Part shown: piece after piece, positions 1,422-42,596 of the stretch | Numbering within the stretch: the first letter of the stretch is position 1 | How the letters are laid out: each line of letters begins with the position of its first letter | Virus record (IMG/VR): IMGVR_UViG_2802429240_000008 | Reading direction: 5' to 3' (one strand) | Source of the DNA: a virus | Taxonomy: Duplodnaviria > Heunggongvirae > Uroviricota > Caudoviricetes | DNA: 44,891 bases | The notes under the pieces: generated by a model | Seen by the model: the letters and a program-made list of their open reading frames with translations, nothing else | What the model was told of the DNA's origin: nothing | Databases searched by the model: none | Translations under genes and position numbers: made by a program

Positions 1422-3893
1422 TTAAAAATCAGCCTGATTCGGGATCAGTTTTTGCCAGATAGCTGAAACGTATTTTGCCTGGTAACGGGCGTCATCAAGT
1501 GCATTATGGCGCTCACCTTCGAATGGGATAGCAGTTCTGGCATCGAAGTCTATGGCTTTCCCCAGCTCAACGATTGTGCGTACATCGCGATCGTTGTGGT
1601 AGCGCCACGGGCAGGGGATCCCCTGTCGTTCGTATGAACGGCGTAAAATCACGTTGTCGAAGTTGGCTCCATTTCCCCAGACCTGGACAAAAAATTCACC
1701 GGAGTTTTCGTCGATAAATTCCCGCAATTGCAGTAGTGCATCATCTAACGGAATTTCATCGGTCAGAAGGGCAGATTGCGTCTCACGTGATTGCTTAAGC
1801 CACCATTTAATGACGTCACGATCAATGACTCCGCCAGCAGTATTCAGATCGATGGTCTTGCTAAATTCCGGCCCCATATCTCCGGTTTGTGGATCGAAAA
1901 ATATTGCGCCTATTGAGATAATCGGGGCATCGGGATTTTTTCCCATGGTTTCAAGGTCGATCATCAGATGAATCCCCGCTCTGCTGGTGGATGTGAGATT
2001 ATGATGACTGTTCGCCTTAATTAAGGGATCTGACGCCTCGCCAGTTTCACTATCGCTGGCATGATGCTGATTGCCGCCAGGGTTCTCCTTGTGCTGATGT
2101 GCAGTACCTTCCATTTCCTCCGGATCATTTTCCTGAACTTCAACCTGATTCTCTTCATCGAATGTTTCCTGGTATGTTGCGTCGCCCATCACCGCGCCAC
2201 AATCAGGGCAGCTACCGCCGCCGGTCTGACCGCAGGCGGTGCAGGCTTTTTCCGGCTCCTGTTGCGCTACTGGTTCAACCTGTTTCGTTTCTGGCTCGTT
2301 TTGTTGCGCATTTGGGCTGTTTTGTTCCGTTTTCTGGTCGTTCTGTTCCGATTCTTGCTGGTTCTGGTTTACAGAATCGCGGGTTTCAATCCCCTTCACC
2401 CATTTCGGATCATTCGGGTCGCTAATCCCTGCAACAAATTCTCCGCGAGAGGCAGCAAGCAACTTATCGGCGTCAGGCTGGCTGATATTGGCTGCCTGCA
2501 TAATTTTGTTTACTTCCTCAGCGGTAACTTTTACCGGCTCTGGTTGTGCGGTCGTGTCAGATGCACCAGTATTTTGTTGTGAACCTGAGTATGTACCGTT
2601 TTTGCGGGCAAAATATTCTTCTTTCGTGATTTCAGTAGCCCCTGCAGTCAGCGCCTTATTCAGACCAGAAAGTTTGTTTGCGCGACCATATTTTTCGCCA
2701 TCCTTATCTGTGAAGAGGAAGTAGAACGGCCCCTCACGCTCTACAGATGGTTCGACTTCCACTTTGCATTCGGTTTTTTCGTTGTCCGGAATTGCCGTTT
2801 CCACTGCATCAGTTTCTGGTACTGGCGACGAGAGAGTATCAGTTGCGCTCTGATTTGTTCCTTCATCTTCAAACACGCCCTTTGTAGTCAGGTATTCAGT
2901 AATGTATTTGTTCAGTGCCACAGGGTCTTTGTGAATGTCGATCGGACGTTCACGGACAAGGCCAAAAATAGTCTGGCGGTCGTAGCGAAGGGCATCAGGC
3001 TGTTTGCGCATTGATGCCGAGATACGCTTCCAGTCTTCGCGGTCGTTGTCGATAACTTCATTTTTTGCCCAGCGATGGATGCTGCCGTCAATGTTTCCGG
3101 CATCAATGTCACCAGGCCACAGAGCGTAGGCCAGTTCATCATCCAGTGTTTTCCATGTCTGTTTGTATTCGCGACGAATGGTGGCAGTGGCTGGGGGGAT
3201 TTTCGCTACTGAGTTTTCAGTGTTCTGCCGGTTGACTCTGGCGCAGGCAAGATCAACAACAGACGTGTATTTCCCGGTTTCTTTGCGTTCGGCTTCGCGA
3301 CGTTTTTTCCAGGTGCGTAATTCTGTCTGGATCTCAGGCCATTTTGCACCCGGCTTACATTTATGTTTAACCCACCCGATGGCGAGCAGCTTAAGCTCTG
3401 AATACATGACGTTAACTTCAGGCATTTTCATCAATGCCTCAACGATATGCCCGTCGAATGTTGCCATGTCCTCCTGCAGTAATTCCTGAGCACTAATCAC
3501 CATATCAACGGTGATGTTTTCACATGTACCGAACTTAACCAGGACCGCGTTCTGTACTTCAAGTGACAGCTTGTCAAAATTGACGTTCATCGGATCGGAT
3601 TCTGGTTCGACCGGAATAAAGGAAGCGGATTCCTCATCCCAGCGGTTTTCCTGCATATATTCGGTATCCCAGGAGTCGATAGCAGGACGGGGCATGCCGG
3701 GTTTATCCTCGCAGACAAGAAATTTATAAGCGCAGTCCTGAGCAGCCGGATATTGCTCCAGGAATTGCCAGGTAAATTTGGCACGGGCGCGGCGTTCGTC
3801 ACCGGCTTCAATGGCAGTGGCTACAGCAACTGCACCTTCTTCCTTTATTGCCTGTTCGTCCGGAATGGCGGCGCAAATAAAGACTTTACTCAT
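1422..3893 (-). CDS. RecE-like exonuclease (823 aa): RecE-type N-terminal/central region fused to a C-terminal DnaQ-like DEDDh 3'-5' exonuclease domain
   Basis: Central segment (DKLLAASRGEFVAGISDPNDPKWVKGI...ACTACGQTGGGSCPDCGAVMGDATYQETFDEENQVE) matches my memory of Rac RecE; C-terminal part has DEDDh motifs (MIDLETMG, WGNGANFDNV, HNALDDARY); ATG at 3891-3893 with upstream GAGG. Confidence 0.75.
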   Translation of the reverse strand: MSKVFICAAIPDEQAIKEEGAVAVATAIEAGDERRARAKFTWQFLEQYPAAQDCAYKFLVCEDKPGMPRPAIDSWDTEYMQENRWDEESASFIPVEPESDPMNVNFDKLSLEVQNAVLVKFGTCENITVDMVISAQELLQEDMATFDGHIVEALMKMPEVNVMYSELKLLAIGWVKHKCKPGAKWPEIQTELRTWKKRREAERKETGKYTSVVDLACARVNRQNTENSVAKIPPATATIRREYKQTWKTLDDELAYALWPGDIDAGNIDGSIHRWAKNEVIDNDREDWKRISASMRKQPDALRYDRQTIFGLVRERPIDIHKDPVALNKYITEYLTTKGVFEDEGTNQSATDTLSSPVPETDAVETAIPDNEKTECKVEVEPSVEREGPFYFLFTDKDGEKYGRANKLSGLNKALTAGATEITKEEYFARKNGTYSGSQQNTGASDTTAQPEPVKVTAEEVNKIMQAANISQPDADKLLAASRGEFVAGISDPNDPKWVKGIETRDSVNQNQQESEQNDQKTEQNSPNAQQNEPETKQVEPVAQQEPEKACTACGQTGGGSCPDCGAVMGDATYQETFDEENQVEVQENDPEEMEGTAHQHKENPGGNQHHASDSETGEASDPLIKANSHHNLTSTSRAGIHLMIDLETMGKNPDAPIISIGAIFFDPQTGDMGPEFSKTIDLNTAGGVIDRDVIKWWLKQSRETQSALLTDEIPLDDALLQLREFIDENSGEFFVQVWGNGANFDNVILRRSYERQGIPCPWRYHNDRDVRTIVELGKAIDFDARTAIPFEGERHNALDDARYQAKYVSAIWQKLIPNQADF

Positions 3894-4412: not shown

Positions 4413-4470
4413 AAAAAGGGCGGCAGAGCAGTCACGGAGTAAAACTGATTCCGCCAAACGCCACCAGAAA
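4413..4470 (-). ncRNA. dicF: DicF small RNA (53 nt, 4418-4470) plus 3' U-tract
   Basis: Reverse complement of 4418-4470 is TTTCTGGTGGCGTTTGGCGGAATCAGTTTTACTCCGTGACTGCTCTGCCGCCC, about 2 mismatches from the E. coli K-12 DicF sequence as I remember it, followed by TTTTT; located downstream of small dicB-operon-like ORFs. Confidence 0.8.
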
Positions 4471-6116: not shown

Positions 6117-6524
6117 TTATTGATGTTTGTTACGTTTGCGAGCTTCTAGTAGCTCGGTGAATAGGCGATTAAAATTCTCAACGCGGGCACGGAGTTCGCT
6201 GATTTGTGCTTGCTGCTCTGATTTTGGAAGTGCGCGATACAATCGCAACATCTCCAACTCATCTTCCGATAAGTCTAAGGCGCTGTTGAGTGCAACTGGT
6301 GGATCTGGTGTTTTATCCTCGTCACCAAACAGTATCCAAGTTGGTGAACATTGCAATACCTCAGCCAGGCGATGCAAATTTTGCCCGCGCGGGGCTGTAT
6401 GGTCGCTTTCCCATAGTGAAATTGATGAGCCAGATACGCCAGCAGCTTTGCTTAAATCGTTTTGACTTAAACCAACCTGTTTGCGTCTTTCTCTAATTCG
6501 TTGACCTAAAGTTTTCTCGTTCAT
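6117..6524 (-). CDS. dicA: DicA-like HTH (XRE family) prophage repressor, 135 aa
   Basis: N-terminal HTH (LGQRIRERRKQVGLSQNDLSKAAGVSGSSISLWE) and C-terminal LQCSPTWILFGDEDK...ELRARVENFNRLFTELLEARKRN closely resemble E. coli DicA as I recall it; same length; divergent from a Cro-like gene. Confidence 0.85.
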   Translation of the reverse strand: MNEKTLGQRIRERRKQVGLSQNDLSKAAGVSGSSISLWESDHTAPRGQNLHRLAEVLQCSPTWILFGDEDKTPDPPVALNSALDLSEDELEMLRLYRALPKSEQQAQISELRARVENFNRLFTELLEARKRNKHQ

Positions 6525-6601
6525 ATTTAGATATCTTAATAACCCTTGACTTGAGATTCCTTGAGTGATTACTATTGAGAAAACTCAACTTTGGAGGGGT
6601 G
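6525..6601. promoter_or_regulatory. Divergent promoter / operator region between the dicA-like and dicC-like genes
   Basis: Contains TTGACT (6546-6551) and the inverted repeat TTGAGAAAACTCAA (6575-6588) just upstream of the dicC-like start. Confidence 0.4.
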
Positions 6602-6829
6602 ATGTTTAAATCAGACGTAATTAATTTTTATGGGACGAAAGCCAAAGTAGCAAAAGCTGCTGGTGTTGATCCATCTGCTGTTTCTCAATGGGGGGAACTG
6701 GTTCCTGAAGGTCGCGCGATGCGCCTGCAAGAGGCATCCGGCGGGGAACTTCAGTACGACCCCAAAGTTTATGACGAATATCGTAAGGCAAAGCGGGCGG
6801 GGCGGTTGAACAATGAAAATCACCCCTGA
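6602..6829 (+). CDS. dicC: DicC/YdaS-type Cro-like regulator (75 aa)
   Basis: ATG at 6602 just downstream of GGAGG; C-terminal PEGRAMRLQEASGGELQYDPKVY...RAGRLNNENH resembles DicC as I recall it; divergent from the repressor gene. Confidence 0.65.
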   Translation: MFKSDVINFYGTKAKVAKAAGVDPSAVSQWGELVPEGRAMRLQEASGGELQYDPKVYDEYRKAKRAGRLNNENHP

Positions 6830-7364
6830 ACAGGTTTGTGAGGCTCTGGATGCCTGGGTATGCCGACCAGGAATGACACAGGAGCAGGCGACGATATTAA
6901 TCACGGAAGCATTCTGGGCTCTGAAAGAACGCCCGAACATCGATGTTCAACGCGTCACGTTTAATGATGGCGAGGTTGATCAACGGGCGCTGGGCGTTAA
7001 CCGGGTGAAGATATTCGAACGCTGGAAAGCTATCGACACCAGGGATAAGCGGGAAAAATTCACGGCGCTGATTCCGGCAATTATGGAGGCTATCCGGATC
7101 AGCGATTTCAGGTTGTATTGTGAAATTACTGACGGAAAAAGCATTACGTACATGATCGCCGGGTTAAACAAAGAATATGGCGATGTGGTGGAGTCCGGGC
7201 TGCTTTTTGCGGATCCATCTGTTGTGGAACGTGAGACTGACGAGCTTATAGAAAAAGCTATTGCTTTCAAGCATGCGTATCGTCAGCAATATCAATATTA
7301 CTTTGCAGATAAACAAATGTCTGCCAGGGGTTCGTATGAGTATCGATGCACTACGATGGGCTAA
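6813..7364 (+). CDS. Hypothetical early protein (183 aa), possibly YdaT/CII-like
   Basis: ORF directly after the cro-like gene with short overlaps at both ends; family assignment is tentative, from memory only. Confidence 0.45.
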   Translation: MKITPEQVCEALDAWVCRPGMTQEQATILITEAFWALKERPNIDVQRVTFNDGEVDQRALGVNRVKIFERWKAIDTRDKREKFTALIPAIMEAIRISDFRLYCEITDGKSITYMIAGLNKEYGDVVESGLLFADPSVVERETDELIEKAIAFKHAYRQQYQYYFADKQMSARGSYEYRCTTMG

Positions 7365-8376
7365 AAAGGTGAAAACCGGCAGTTCATCCAGTAAGTCAGT
7401 ATTGACCTGGCTTGCTGATATGTGCGGTGCCGATTTGTGTGCATACCCGTCTGTATCTGCACTGGCAGAAGTAACGGAACTGAACAAAAAGACTGTGCAG
7501 GACAGCTTACGACATCTGATGGAGATTGGGTTAATTGTTGATACCGGTGAGAGAAAAGGCAGAACAAAGCAAATTGTGGTGTATCGACTTATCGGTGTAG
7601 AAGAAAGTGTTGCCGAGCCTGAATACACCCAAAAACGGGAGTCTTTAAAGGTGGGTAAAATTGGTGCTGTTAATAAAAACAGTACCGAAAATGGTTATGT
7701 TTCAGCACAAAACAGACCCAAAAACGGAACTCTTAGCTGCATGGAAAATAACCAAAGACACCCAAATTTTCCATCAAAGACACCCAAAAACGGATCACGG
7801 AACCCAAAGGAACCCAAAGATCTAAACCCCACACATAACACACGCGAGAGTGCTCCGACCAGTGAGCAGGAAGTTTTGTCGTTACAGGCAGCACCCCCTG
7901 TATTCCTGGATGGCCTGAGCGAACCCATCGGAAAATTTCCGATGACCGATAGCTGGTATCCGTCACGGGATTTTCGACGACGGGCTGCGTTGTGGGGGAT
8001 GGCTTTACCGGAGACAGAATTTACACCTGCTGAACTTGCCGCCTTCCGGGACTACTGGACAGCGGAGGGGAAAGTGTTTACGCAGATTCAGTGGGAGCAG
8101 AAATTCGCCCGTCACGTAAATCACGTCAGGGCGCAGGTTAAACCAGTCAGCAAGGGGGTAAACCATGCAGCAGCACCAGGTGGCACCGCATCACGGGCAG
8201 TTCAGGAAATTCGGGCAGCACGTGAGCAGTGGGAACGTGAAAACGGATTTATCAGCGACGGAAACGGCCTGGAAGCTGTGGGAACTCATGGGGGAGGTTT
8301 ATTCGAACCGCTGGACCCAGAAGAACGGGGCCGCACCTTCGAAGCTCTGGATTGCACAGATTGGCGCGATGACTGA
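7336..8376 (+). CDS. Replication initiation protein (O-like; N-terminal winged-HTH domain, low-complexity linker, C-terminal DnaT-like region)
   Basis: ATG at 7336 with AGGGG RBS; N-terminus MSIDALRWAKKV...LAEVTELNKKTVQDSLRHLMEIGLI; the linker coincides with DNA iterons; followed by a P-like gene. Confidence 0.65.
   Translation: MSIDALRWAKKVKTGSSSSKSVLTWLADMCGADLCAYPSVSALAEVTELNKKTVQDSLRHLMEIGLIVDTGERKGRTKQIVVYRLIGVEESVAEPEYTQKRESLKVGKIGAVNKNSTENGYVSAQNRPKNGTLSCMENNQRHPNFPSKTPKNGSRNPKEPKDLNPTHNTRESAPTSEQEVLSLQAAPPVFLDGLSEPIGKFPMTDSWYPSRDFRRRAALWGMALPETEFTPAELAAFRDYWTAEGKVFTQIQWEQKFARHVNHVRAQVKPVSKGVNHAAAPGGTASRAVQEIRAAREQWERENGFISDGNGLEAVGTHGGGLFEPLDPEERGRTFEALDCTDWRDD
7710..7830. repeat. 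Iteron-like direct repeats (core ACCCAAA, five copies) inside the O-like gene: candidate replication origin
   Basis: gacccaaaaacgga (7716), acacccaaatttt (7757), acacccaaaaacgga (7780), aacccaaagg (7801), aacccaaaga (7811); lambda ori likewise lies within O. Confidence 0.5.
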
Positions 8377-11248: not shown

Positions 11249-11371
11249 CCTGACCTGAGGCATTCACTACGGTAGGAATTGCGATGGCGGTGGCGCTGGT
11301 GGTGCATTCGATTTGCCGATGGGGATAAAAACGGTTTGCGGGAAAAGGAGAGTTAAGTAGAATTGCTGCGG

Positions 11372-11516
11372 GTGCTTGAGGCTATCTGCCTCGGGCATGA
11401 ACACCAACGGCAGATAGATAAAAGCCCCACCCGACTATAAATCGAAGTGAGGCCCCTATATGCTCGTCACATATAGATTGCCTCTTACGGACCGAAAGGT
11501 CAAGGAGAAGCAGGCT
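11372..11516 (+). promoter_or_regulatory. hok mRNA 5' leader with in-frame upstream start (mok-like, ATG 11460); expected location of an antisense Sok-like RNA
   Basis: GCTTGAGGCTATCTGCCTC resembles the 5' end of hok-family mRNAs as I recall it; 8-bp inverted repeat tatctgcc/ggcagata; in-frame ATG at 11460 gives a 70-codon ORF. Confidence 0.4.
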
Positions 11517-11672
11517 ATGAAGCAGCAAAAGGCGATGTTAATCGCCCTGATCGTCATCTGTTTAACCGTCATAGTGACGGCACTGGTAACGAGGAAAGAC
11601 CTCTGCGAGGTACGAATCCGAACCGGCCAGACGGAGGTCGCTGTCTTCACAGCTTACGAACCTGAGGAGTAA
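11517..11672 (+). CDS. hokD: Hok/Gef family type I toxin (51 aa)
   Basis: MKQQKAMLIALIVICLTVIVTALVTRKDLCEVRIRTGQTEVAVFTAYEPEE: single TM helix and conserved C-terminal Hok motif; appears to match HokD (RelF) from memory; AAGGAGAAG RBS. Confidence 0.85.
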   Translation: MKQQKAMLIALIVICLTVIVTALVTRKDLCEVRIRTGQTEVAVFTAYEPEE

Positions 11673-16633: not shown

Positions 16634-16946
16634 TTTACGGGACAAAAAAAATTCCTTAATACTGATAACTTGGCGCACTATACACACGTTCCTGAAGAAA
16701 GCTATAGTTTTTTGATGGGGTTGAAGATGGCTGGATGTCTAAAATAAACATTGCTTCATATGTTCAACTATGCGTTAATGATTGCGTCGGTTTGAAGAAC
16801 AGACGATATACGAAGTAGTTTACTAAAGCAGTTCTCATTTCAGGTGTTATTCACTTATTCCTTCTTTGAGTCTCTCCAATTAAGTACGAAGTCGTTTCTG
16901 TTATACAAACCATTTATGCCGAAAGGCTCAAGTTAAGGAATGTAGA

Positions 16947-17162
16947 ATGTCAAATAAAATGACTGGTTTAGTAAAATGGTTTAACGCTGATAAAGGTTTT
17001 GGCTTTATTTCTCCTGTTGATGGTAGTAAAGATGTGTTTGTGCATTTTTCTGTGATTCAGAATGATAATTATCGAACCTTATTTGAAGGTCAAAAGGTTA
17101 CCTTCTCTGTAGAGAGTGGTGCTAAAGGTCCTGCAGCAGCAAATGTCATCATTAATGATTAA
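16947..17162 (+). CDS. cspB: Cold-shock protein, CspA family (CspB-like, 71 aa)
   Basis: [53 protein letters not shown]...: canonical cold-shock domain; AAGGA RBS. Confidence 0.9.
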
Positions 17163-17443
17163 AATTCATAGTTTGTCTGTATACGATAACGAAGAAGGCT
17201 GATGCCTGAGTGGAGATACAGACAGAGTGGTGAATATTGGATCTCTTTAATAAAGAGTAAGGAGGTCCAATACATGAAACAATGGCCAGCATATTTGGTA
17301 ATAACTTAATCAGGAAAAGTATGCTAACCATTGTGGTGAAGTGCAGGTTTGCTGCATGAATAGTTTTACAGCAGAAGCTAACTGCTGGCATAGCAAAACA
17401 AAGTGCGTAAGTGGATGACTCTCACAAAAAGCACCACAATATT

Positions 17444-40193: not shown

Positions 40194-42596
40194 ATGGCAG
40201 TAAAGATTTCAGGTGTACTGAAAGACGGTGCAGGTAAACCGGTACAGAACTGCACAATCCAGCTGAAAGCAAAACGTAACAGCACCACGGTGGTGGTGAA
40301 CACGCTGGCCTCAGAAAATCCGGATGAAGCCGGGCGTTACAGCATGGATGTTGAGTATGGCCAGTACAGCGTCACCCTGCTGGTTGAAGGTTTTCCGCCT
40401 TCACATGCCGGGACCATTACCGTCTATGAAGGTTCCAGACCAGGTACGCTGAATGATTTTCTCGGTGCCATGACGGAAGATGATGTCATGCCGGAGGCAT
40501 TGCGTCGTTTTGAGGAAATGGTGGAAGAAGCGGCACGCAACGCCGAAGCCGCCTCTCAGAGCGCAGCGGCGGCAAAGAAATCCGAAACGGCTGCGGCATC
40601 ATCGAAGAACGCGGCGAAAAGCTCAGAAACGAATGCAGCTAACAGCGCCCAGGCGGCAGCGGCCTCACAGACTGCATCGGCAAACTCCGCGACAGCAGCC
40701 AAAAAATCAGAAACCAACGCGAAAAACAGCGAGACAGCAGCAAAGACGAGCGAAACCAACGCAAAGTCCAGCCAGACGGCAGCGAAGACCAGCGAAACGA
40801 ATGCCAAAGCCAGTGAAACTGCGGCGAAAAGCAGTCAGGCTGCAGCAGCCGAAAGCGAGAGCGCGGCAGCCGGTTCTGCGACTTCAGCAGCCGGATCAGC
40901 AACTGCTGCGGCTAACAGCCAGAAAGCTGCGAAGACGAGTGAAACTAACGCAAAGTCCAGCCAGACGGCAGCGAAGACCAGCGAAACGAATGCCAAAGCC
41001 AGCGAAACTGCGGCGAAAAGCAGTCAGGATGCAGCAGCCGAAAGCGAGAGTGCCGCAGCTGGTTCTGCAAGTGCGGCGGCTACTTCTGCCACTGCATCAG
41101 CCAACAGCCAAAAAGCAGCAAAAACCAGTGAAACCAACGCACAGGCGAGCGAAACAGCGGCTGCGAACTCAGCGAAAGCATCGGCAGCAAGCCAGACGGC
41201 AGCTAAAGCAAGTGAAGACGCAGCCAGAGAGTATGCAAGCCAGGCAGCAGAGCCGTATAAATATGTCTTACAGCCGCTGCCTGATGTGTGGATACCGTTT
41301 AACGATTCACTGGATATGATTGCGGGCTTTTCGCCATCATATAAAAAGATTGTTATTGGTGATGATGAAATAACAATGCCTAGCGATAAGGTTGTTAAAT
41401 TTAAACGAGCGTCGAAAGCAACCTATATTAATAAGGCGGGGATGCTGACAGAGGCTGCAATCGATGAAGCACGATTTGAACGCAACGGCCTGCTTATTGA
41501 AGGGCAGAGAACTAACCTGCTAATCAATTCAACCAATCCGACTAAATGGAACAAGTCGTCAAATATGATCTTAAGTGCATCAGGTGTAGATGATTTCGGA
41601 TTCCAGTACGCAAAATTTACATTAAAACCAGAAATGGTAGGGCAAACTTCATCGATTAACATAGTAACCGTTTCTGGCAGTAAAGGTTTTGACGTAACAG
41701 GCGGAGAAAAGTATGTAACCGTATCATGCAGAGTGCAAAGTGGCACTCCAAATTTAAGATGTCGATTACGATTTGAAAACTATGATGGTTCTACCTACAC
41801 ATTCTTAGGTGACGCTTACTTAAATACGACAGATTTATCTATTGATAAGACGGGGGTGGCCGCTAATCGCATTACTGCTAGGGCTGTTAAAGATGAAGCA
41901 AGCAAATGGATCTTTTTTGAGGCGACAATTAAGGCACTTGATACAGAAAATATGATAGGTGGAATGGTTCAGTATACCCCGGCAAAAGGAGTGGGCACTG
42001 GCGCGGATGATTATATTTATATTGCGACCCCTCAAGTTGAAGGTGGGGCGTGCGCTTCATCGTTTATTATAACAGGCGCATCCCCTGTAACACGCGCCAG
42101 CGATATTGTAACGGTCCCCATTTCTCTAAACTGGTGCAATCCCGCTATTAGTTCATTAGCAGAAGTTAATACCAATTGGGATGAATCGCCAAACAAAGAA
42201 GGTAGCGCACGTATTCTTAATATTTCCACTACGGGAGATACAACTGAAATTGCAGATGAAAGTTATATGTATTTGGGATATACATCGTTGGGAGCACGCG
42301 CAATCATTACAAATGGTAAAGGCACTAAAACAGAATATAAAAGTGTTGTAGAACGACCAGAGAGAAAATGCATTATCGGCTTTAGATTCACAGAAAGTCG
42401 AGAGTTGTGTGTTGTGGTTAACGGTAATATTGGTGCTAAGGCAGTTTCTCCTTATAAAAAACACAAATATACAGGAGGTTTCATTAATATTGGTGGTCAA
42501 TCATCATCCGGCAACCGTCACCTATTTGGACACGTTCGAAATCTGCGTATTTGGCACAAGGCATTGACTGATGCCCAGATGGGGGAGTCAATCTAA
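40194..42596 (+). CDS. stf: Side tail fibre protein (Stf-like, 800 aa) with lambda-Stf-like N-terminus, repetitive Ala/Ser/Thr/Lys-rich shaft and a non-canonical C-terminal LamG/ConA-like domain
   Basis: MAVKISGVLKDGAGKPVQNCTIQLKAKRNSTTVVVNT... matches the lambda Stf N-terminus as I recall it; C-terminus ends ...FGHVRNLRIWHKALTDAQMGESI, typical of LamG-like jellyroll domains. Confidence 0.85.
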   Translation: MAVKISGVLKDGAGKPVQNCTIQLKAKRNSTTVVVNTLASENPDEAGRYSMDVEYGQYSVTLLVEGFPPSHAGTITVYEGSRPGTLNDFLGAMTEDDVMPEALRRFEEMVEEAARNAEAASQSAAAAKKSETAAASSKNAAKSSETNAANSAQAAAASQTASANSATAAKKSETNAKNSETAAKTSETNAKSSQTAAKTSETNAKASETAAKSSQAAAAESESAAAGSATSAAGSATAAANSQKAAKTSETNAKSSQTAAKTSETNAKASETAAKSSQDAAAESESAAAGSASAAATSATASANSQKAAKTSETNAQASETAAANSAKASAASQTAAKASEDAAREYASQAAEPYKYVLQPLPDVWIPFNDSLDMIAGFSPSYKKIVIGDDEITMPSDKVVKFKRASKATYINKAGMLTEAAIDEARFERNGLLIEGQRTNLLINSTNPTKWNKSSNMILSASGVDDFGFQYAKFTLKPEMVGQTSSINIVTVSGSKGFDVTGGEKYVTVSCRVQSGTPNLRCRLRFENYDGSTYTFLGDAYLNTTDLSIDKTGVAANRITARAVKDEASKWIFFEATIKALDTENMIGGMVQYTPAKGVGTGADDYIYIATPQVEGGACASSFIITGASPVTRASDIVTVPISLNWCNPAISSLAEVNTNWDESPNKEGSARILNISTTGDTTEIADESYMYLGYTSLGARAIITNGKGTKTEYKSVVERPERKCIIGFRFTESRELCVVVNGNIGAKAVSPYKKHKYTGGFINIGGQSSSGNRHLFGHVRNLRIWHKALTDAQMGESI
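40740..41140 (+). repeat. Tandem direct repeat, 2 x 189 bp (63 codons) plus partial flanking copies, inside stf
   Basis: Units 40740-40928 and 40929-41117 are near-identical (gcaaagtccagccagacggcagcgaagaccagcgaaacgaatgccaaagccag...); they encode repeated AKSSQTAAKTSETNAKASETAAKSSQ segments. Confidence 0.8.

Follow-up and report, generated by a model that had tools for sequence, protein, structure and literature searches.

Within a 44,891-nt stretch of DNA from a Caudoviricetes virus (IMG/VR record IMGVR_UViG_2802429240_000008; the whole stretch is called the window below), we identified an array of direct repeats at 7622-7819, located inside the gene of a predicted replication initiator. Judging from the sequence, we consider it probable (about 0.75) that this array is the iteron origin, or the initiator-binding core of the origin, of a lambdoid prophage of the PPompW type, and that it is bound by the prophage's own initiator. 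By analogy, the layout is best read as a lambda-style one, with the origin situated inside the gene of its own initiator. We favour this reading because the repeats are clustered, conserved at the DNA level, specific in their orientation and position, linked to the N-terminal domain (N-domain) of the initiator, and placed in a replication module.

The repeat array in the window and in homologous genes

The heptamer ACCCAAA starts at 7627, 7716, 7760, 7782, 7802 and 7812, always on the plus strand, and occurs nowhere else on either strand of the 44.9-kb window. The total is ordinary (6 observed vs 7.2 expected), and it is the clustering that stands out: all six copies lie within 192 nt (7627-7818), and the chance of six random sites falling on one strand within such a distance is about 3e-13 (6 x (192/44885)^5 / 32). 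A longer sequence, ACCCAAAAACGG, is found exactly at 7627, 7716 and 7782. The initial annotation had counted five ACCCAAA repeats of one kind within 7710-7830. That interval does hold five; however, the array begins about 90 nt upstream, at 7622, leaving the iterons at 7622 and 7678 outside, and the repeats are not equal. The array is composed of three classes of elements, namely four 21-nt iterons (consensus AAcAGtCCCAAAAACGGnAC), one variant with a T-tract, and a pair of 10-nt tandem units (Table 1), and only two of the five copies belong to full iterons, the other three being part of the two further classes.

A position weight matrix (PWM; maximum 33.1 bits), built solely from homologous genes of other genomes, exceeded 20 bits at four sites of the window, all on the plus strand, with the runner-up reaching 7.6 bits (89.8 kb scanned). 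The iterons are spaced by 56, 33 and 66 nt. We considered helical phasing and rejected it: these spacings resemble multiples of 11, but the family-common spacings of 17, 24, 46 and 61 do not. Elsewhere in the window, short-range direct repeats were found solely as an in-frame set in a late gene at 40.6-41.1 kb.

Relatives were collected using the N-terminal 169 aa of the initiator. From contigs limited to one genome per species we retrieved 80 related loci, which belong to Enterobacterales, Acinetobacter, Burkholderiales, Sphingomonadales and other groups and have N-domain identities of 33-64%; the distinct homologous genes numbered 78, mostly from gamma-, beta- and alpha-proteobacteria. The initial annotation had named a lack of conservation in homologous genes as the result that would speak against an origin. 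We found at least one PWM match in 77/78 of these genes, in the same linker, with coding-strand orientation and across three codon phases, mostly in 3-6 copies, as opposed to only 8 matches in 819 kb of the relatives' flanks (both strands counted). A loose pattern taken from the window, CCNA[AC]AA[CT]GG, was counted in 81 initiator open reading frames (ORFs; the 80 loci plus the window, 69.8 kb) and gave 204 coding-strand sites, nearly all at gene nt 260-480, with 2 antisense sites inside the ORFs and 11 sites on both strands of 425 kb of flanks. The two A residues at -6/-5, which lie outside the search pattern, were kept in 150/154 distinct sites, and the invariant iteron core across the family is CC.A.AA.GG; an Acinetobacter variant reads CCCAACAAYGG. 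The segment comprising N-domain and array is present at >=95% identity in 908/5426 complete E. coli genomes, including O157:H7, O145 and O111 strains, and homologues occur in phiV10-like, Vibrio H20-like, Acinetobacter AP22/AB1-like, Edwardsiella, Burkholderia and Escherichia phages. When 1.84 billion proteins were searched with the N-domain, 2274 cluster representatives matched at E<=0.001.

Among the individual iterons, the third matches the matrix best. At position 7726 the window has CGG, the family consensus, whereas PPompW_132418 and E. coli 2013C_3963 have CAG, so that the iteron reads ...AAAAACGGAAC in the window and ...AAAAACAGAAC in PPompW_132418 (position 3726) and E. coli 2013C_3963. 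The core of the fourth iteron, CCCAAAAACGG, is unchanged in 7 enterobacterial relatives. The ACCCAAA at 7760 is part of the variant element AAGACACCCAAATTTTCC, which has no PWM score; relatives carry CCCGTTTTTCCC or CCCAAATTTCCC at the same place, directly before the last iteron, in 1-3 copies. A perfect 9-bp inverted repeat, ATGGAAAAT/ATTTTCCAT, flanks the variant element (7741-7749 / 7766-7774). The corresponding hairpin (7741-7774; 9-bp A/T stem, -5.8 kcal/mol as single-stranded DNA (ssDNA), z -2.1) was too weak to use. Relatives have a different complementarity here, between the T-tract element CCCGTTTTT and AAAAACGGG of the next iteron.

The tandem pair at the right end of the array reads as the local form of a family feature, phased GAAYC units that come after the last iteron. 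Of the 78 loci, 50 had two or more of these units and 30 had three or more, as compared to 0.23% and none, respectively, of 9041 control windows, and 79/90 successive pairs were spaced by 11-13 nt. Plain autocorrelation was discarded in favour of this count, being too blunt for units whose period varies (best self-match 0.49 vs 0.39 in controls). In E. coli 2013C_3963 (positions 1160-1180 of its locus) one GGAACCCAAA unit has been lost and the initiator gene is frameshifted, appearing in RefSeq as a helix-turn-helix (HTH) protein and a partial DnaT-like pseudogene. The initiator gene is split into two coding sequences also in several phage records (Vibrio H20-like, Bcep176, EPP-1).

The array differs from the rest of the gene in composition as well. 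Windows of 60 nt inside 7620-7839 have a GC content of 33-47%, as compared with 50-68% in most of the remaining initiator gene and 50-58% in the DNA to the right of the array, and the plus strand of this region is strongly skewed (A>T, C>G). The most A+T-rich stretch of the gene lies inside the array (Table 1) and is a weak candidate for the region that melts first; it is not kept as a spacer in relatives, where more iterons stand in its place.

Several points weigh against an origin. A lambda-like block of 80% A+T was not found beside the array, the best 40-nt window reaching 70%, within the array and unconserved, and there are no DnaA boxes between 4941 and 11320. The initiator falls outside the Pfam lambda-O family (no match to Phage_rep_O, PF04492, at E<=0.01; lambda O scores 123 bits). 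PPompW prophages were described as defective despite excising and circularising, so that the copy in the window need not be active (PMC8112680), and our literature searches turned up neither an experimentally mapped origin nor binding data for any member of the family. In addition, the PWM and the related-locus counts share loci, which makes the absolute match numbers there somewhat circular; the contrast between the inside and the outside of ORFs and the scan of the window are free of this circularity.

The alternative that survives best, which we nevertheless regard as unlikely, is that the array provides initiator-binding sites mainly for control (autoregulation by a transcriptional roadblock, titration or handcuffing), with strand opening and initiation occurring elsewhere in the prophage. 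Conservation that is oriented, linked to the N-domain and exerted at the DNA level would suit any initiator-binding role, iteron plasmids use their iterons for initiation and control alike, and the failure to find a strong A+T-rich unwinding element beside the array points in the same direction. However, the window contains no second iteron-like cluster and no other PWM match above 7.6 bits, and with so few matches in the flanks of relatives, a second origin used by the same initiator would have to be one without visible sites. The two roles can, moreover, coexist.

The initiator protein and the exchange of its domains

An AlphaFold2 (AF2) model of the initiator, built from 59 sequences and graded by its predicted local distance difference test (pLDDT) values, consists of a winged-helix N-domain, a linker predicted to be disordered and a DnaT-like C-terminal domain (C-domain), with the array entirely within the linker (Table 1). 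The initial annotation had placed the repeats in a linker with the peptides NRPKNGTLS ... KTPKNGSRNPKEPKDL; these peptides are indeed present in ORF 7336-8376. The N-domain is presumed, by analogy, to be the iteron-binding module. It matched HTH_36 (PF13730) weakly in the window initiator (20.9 bits, under the 25-bit cut-off), and this family was detected at E<=0.001 in 71/71 scanned family initiators (best 5e-14). Foldseek returned weak matches of the N-domain to winged-helix regulators in general, and a profile search of PDB sequences returned nothing below E 0.09. No Pfam family of the Rep type was matched at its cut-off (a faint RP-C match reached 16.5 bits vs 24.4), and the protein has one winged-helix domain only. 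Invariance across the 71 family members is seen at K52 and T53, where helix 4 starts, and, in the wing, at D69, T70, G71, E72, R73, G75 and T77. These would be typical DNA-contact positions, and their invariance is paralleled by that of the iteron core.

We made no claim of homology to lambda O: when 24 family N-domains were compared with lambda O by hhalign, the probability was 3.4% and E 0.013, the aligned stretch being the equivalent helix-wing region, though not significantly. The term "O-like" used in the initial annotation therefore fits the layout and the likely role of the protein, but not its family.

The C-domain was assigned to DnaT (PF17948; 61.2 bits, E 8e-17), and Foldseek matched it to DnaT structures 6aeq/4ou6 (E ~3e-6, target template modelling (TM) score 0.83-0.92, 53-58% identity). 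In the family this half of the protein is exchangeable: of 71 initiators, 9 had a DnaT domain, 2 Phg_2220_C and 2 DnaA_N, the rest being without a Pfam match. The module in the last two is the N-terminal domain of DnaA (PF11638). The gene after the initiator in relatives, where recognisable, is P-like, DnaB-like or IstB/DnaC-like, and a methyltransferase gene is also found there.

The ydaU-ydaV locus of Rac-SA53 (KU052037) presents the reverse exchange. It has the same order of genes (dicA-like, dicC-like, ydaT, initiator, small P-like protein), and the C-half of its YdaU is 87% identical to the window initiator from aa 161, with downstream DNA ~92% identical, whereas the N-half is unrelated and the linker is without family iterons. 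The similarity starts at 7818-7839, directly right of the array; in this comparison the swap point is AGATCTAAA..CCCCACACATA. The Rac-SA53 ydaU linker (about 2850-2990 of its locus) is A+T-rich and contains an inverted repeat, GTTCAAACA/TGTTTGAAC, possibly representing a different type of origin at the same place. Since C-domains are swapped in the family, and since the Rac YdaU with another N-half lacks the iterons, the array follows the N-domain in inheritance rather than the C-domain, as expected for a DNA-binding domain and its sites. Lambda O binds ori with its N-domain and P with its C-domain, and the co-inheritance of N-domain and array matches this two-domain logic.

The same observations bear on the possibility that the repeats are bound by another protein, a host factor or another phage protein, and form a non-replication site, for example one for partition or transcription control. 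Binding by the N-domain is our inference, and the iteron core varies unusually little between hosts that are very different, which leaves some room for such a protein. Yet the repeats go with this N-domain and are absent once it is replaced, a factor shared by hosts of several classes would need to be universal, DnaA boxes are lacking nearby, and the initiator is the only gene constantly linked to the repeats. We consider this explanation quite improbable.

Constraint on the DNA and on the encoded peptides

The exact 12-mer of the array encodes T-Q-K-R at 7627 but P-K-N-G at both 7716 and 7782, and the third phase is used by the heptamer at 7760 (H-P-N). Across the family, the 21-nt consensus was found in codon phases 0, 1 and 2 at 63, 94 and 39 sites, encoding VPTTEQ-like, xPKNGT-like and SQKRN-like peptides, respectively. 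More than one phase was used within the same gene in 63/73 genes with at least 2 copies; the four iterons of the window use two. Because one 21-nt consensus recurs in all three phases, selection works at the level of the DNA rather than the peptide, and the "conserved" linker peptides in protein alignments are therefore translations of one DNA element. The GAAYC spacings of 11 and 13 nt likewise exclude a purely peptide-level origin of these units. A linker predicted to be disordered can be a place tolerant of such DNA-level constraint.

These results largely refute the explanation that the protein needs repeated PKNGT-like peptides in its linker, for instance for docking of a host factor, with similarity of the DNA as a by-product. 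It is true that PKNG(T/S), TENG, QKR(N/D/E) and PFFP recur in the linkers of distant homologues, and that 98/115 representative family proteins have at least one such peptide at aa 86-185. But the differing peptides are one consensus in three phases, with phase shifts within single genes, the AA at -6/-5 is kept whatever the phase, the strand polarity is strict, and the domesticated protein DopC is without detectable iterons (PMC5509034). Least credible of all is a neutral origin, in which the array is low-complexity sequence without sequence-specific function, left by slippage where the linker tolerates it or by recombination joining gene modules: the 10-nt tandem pair is slippage-prone, with one E. 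coli genome having lost a unit, and a Rac-type mosaic junction lies directly right of the array, but slippage does not explain dispersed copies with irregular spacings (17-66 nt) and strict polarity, nor a near-invariant core common to loci from gamma-, beta- and alpha-proteobacteria, given that their N-domains share no more than 35-45% identity.

Known replication systems, the prophage locus and the wider family

The lambda-like arrangement proposed in the initial annotation was borne out, with a winged-helix N-domain, repeats in a predicted disordered linker, an exchangeable C-domain and a P-family gene. As in lambda, the direct repeats are inside the initiator gene, in the flexible-linker stretch between the N-terminal DNA-binding domain and the C-domain; the repeats are read in different codon phases, as are the four annotated mid-gene iterons of lambda; the P-family gene follows directly, overlapping the initiator stop codon; and the module is to the right of the repressor/cro switch. 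The differences are equally clear. Lambda O is a Phage_rep_O protein, which the window initiator is not, and the C-domain of the latter is DnaT-like whereas that of lambda O was reported as Phg_2220_C (PMC5509034). The iterons of the window are 21 nt long, non-palindromic and irregularly spaced, as compared to four closely packed 18-nt sites with internal dyad symmetry in lambda; the 80% A+T block of lambda lies to the right of its iterons, whereas the 70% maximum of the window is inside the array; and the window has two further repeat classes, the T-tract variant and the phased GAAYC units. The lambda iterons have no family PWM score, the least-bad positions in the 1.9-kb lambda locus being iterons 2 and 3, with negative scores. 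These two iterons (552-596 of the lambda O-P locus) are in the same register, which hints faintly at a distant resemblance, AAnnTCCCnnAAAnnGnGG, to the family iteron.

If the origin works as in lambda, derepression would lead to rightward transcription and the making of the initiator, whose winged-helix N-domain would bind the four same-oriented 21-nt iterons and form a multimeric complex. Neighbouring DNA would then open, and the DnaT-like C-domain, together with the downstream P-like protein, would recruit the host DnaB helicase. The transcription across the array could be driven by a sigma-70-like promoter ahead of the cro-like gene (Table 1).

Several same-oriented repeats of about 20 bp next to the gene of a winged-helix initiator are found also in the iteron plasmids (RK2/TrfA, pPS10/RepA, F/RepE, R6K/pi). 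By analogy, the window repeats are presumably bound by the winged-helix initiator as in those plasmids, and helicase recruitment through the initiator would be a logic common to both. Plasmid Rep proteins have two winged-helix domains, and plasmid iterons are intergenic, beside DnaA boxes and A+T-rich 13-mers; the window, in contrast, has a single winged helix, repeats in coding sequence and no DnaA boxes near. As a separate observation, DnaA-box-like 9-mers (TTATCCACA, <=1 mismatch) number 22 in the whole window vs 10.3 expected, a count reached in 0/100 shuffles, and 17 of the 22 are on the minus strand.

The protein pair most similar in architecture is chromosomal. Brezellec et al. (2017) linked the N-terminus of lambda O to HTH_36 by HHpred, and described DopC (HTH_36 + DnaT_C) and DopE (P-like) of Cellvibrionales and Oceanospirillales as domesticated lambda O/P-like genes; they detected no iterons in DopC, and the dopC locus is not at a replication origin (PMC5509034). 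DopC and DopE share with the window pair an HTH_36 protein with a DnaT C-terminal domain followed by a lambda-P-like protein, but they are chromosomal, vertically inherited and without iterons (PMC5509034), whereas the window pair is in a prophage and has them. The window pair thus resembles the phage form from which DopC/DopE-type genes were proposed to derive, and the lack of both iterons and origin in DopC fits repeats that act in origin function rather than through the protein. Fagerlund et al. (2022) described HTH_36 and YdaT-like proteins in the replication modules of Stx phages, with iterons unmentioned (PMC8951638). Our literature searches (iterons together with this protein type, and motif strings) retrieved no paper mapping or naming an origin for this initiator type, the motif strings giving only unrelated matches (primers, papillomavirus E2 sites).

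Over the replication region, the window is ~97% identical to the PPompW lambdoid prophages of E. coli O145:H28, in whose records the initiator gene is annotated as a "phage replication protein". Nakamura et al. described PPompW as lambda-like prophages that excise and circularise upon mitomycin C treatment and are defective in packaging (PMC8112680). The genes are ordered repressor (minus strand), cro-like, ydaT-like, initiator and P-like (Table 1). The P-like gene is directly downstream of the initiator gene, its ATG overlapping the stop codon of the latter; we placed its probable start from the 8-nt overlap, as in Rac-SA53 ydaU/ydaV.

Table 1. Coordinates of the repeat elements, protein domains and neighbouring genes in the window.
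Feature	Position	Strand	Basis and remarks
Iteron 1, AATACACCCAAAAACGGGAGT	7622..7642	+	PWM 24.5 bits; translated EYTQKRE; codon phase unlike iterons 2-4
Iteron 2 (degenerate), AACAGTACCGAAAATGGTTAT	7678..7698	+	PWM 20.9 bits; repeat family D4; translated NSTENGY
Iteron 3 (best match), AACAGACCCAAAAACGGAACT	7711..7731	+	PWM 31.1 bits; translated NRPKNGT
Variant element, AAGACACCCAAATTTTCCATC	7755..7775	+	Iteron 5' half then T-tract; translated KTHPNFP
Iteron 4 (last), AAGACACCCAAAAACGGATCA	7777..7797	+	PWM 25.2 bits; translated KTPKNGS
Tandem 10-nt units, GGAACCCAAA x2.1	7799..7819	+	Tandem Repeats Finder (TRF); include ACCCAAA at 7802 and 7812
Right boundary, AGATCTAAACCCCACACATAAC (AGATCTAAACCCCACACATA)	7818..7839	+	Kept in enterobacterial relatives; mosaic junction with Rac-type ydaU genes
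Most A+T-rich stretch of initiator gene	7643..7712		40-nt windows up to 70% A+T (7640-7712), inside array
Replication initiator gene, 346 aa	7336..8376	+	ORF and translation; winged-helix HTH_36-type N-domain, disordered linker, DnaT-like ssDNA-binding C-domain
N-terminal winged-helix domain, aa 1-90	7336..7605	+	AF2 10-residue-block mean pLDDT 89-97; four helices and beta-hairpin wing
Predicted disordered linker, aa 92-200	7609..7936	+	AF2 block mean pLDDT 36-62, mostly <50; without secondary structure; whole array inside
DnaT-like ssDNA-binding domain, aa 201-267	7936..8136	+	Pfam PF17948; confident in AF2
Lambda-P-family gene, 157 aa	8369..8842	+	Pfam Phage_lambda_P (PF06992), 56.9 bits
DicA-like repressor	6117-6524	-	Gene order
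Sigma-70-like promoter ahead of cro-like gene	6546..6575	+	Consensus match only
P22-Cro-like gene	6575-6829	+	Gene order
YdaT-like gene	6813-7364	+	Gene order

Outside the replication module, Rfam matches at gathering level were obtained for the DicF antisense RNA (4418-4469, minus strand), a sok antitoxin RNA of a hok/sok-type module (11370-11519, plus strand) and a cspA thermoregulator 5' untranslated region (16786-17227, plus strand); no tRNA genes were found in the window. The in-frame coding repeats at 40606-41140, which form families of 31 nt and 189 nt with periods of 42, 84 and 147 nt, probably belong to a repetitive protein of the tail-fibre type.

The 21-nt consensus provides a simple way of predicting origins in these prophages, and it explains the conserved linker peptides as the mere translation of DNA sites. 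The frameshift-prone 10-nt tandem units explain the frequent split of the initiator gene in annotations, and the window pair, with its iterons, offers a candidate phage form for the chromosomal DopC/DopE pair without them. The parts that might be unexpected to specialists are the family-wide constancy of the iteron core and a three-part grammar of the array. More tentatively, and with the balance of our judgement against it, the family may represent a pan-proteobacterial origin type whose coding linker carries this grammar in fixed form: 21-nt iterons in one orientation, 1-3 T-tract "half-inverted" variants before the last iteron, and 2-4 GAAYC units phased by 11-13 nt. If so, the iteron core would have stayed nearly unchanged across bacterial classes, whereas the iterons of lambdoid phages and plasmids diverge quickly, the phased GAAYC units would suggest themselves as an opening or single-strand-binding element that is not A+T-rich, and cross-recognition would be expected among the origins of thousands of unrelated prophages.

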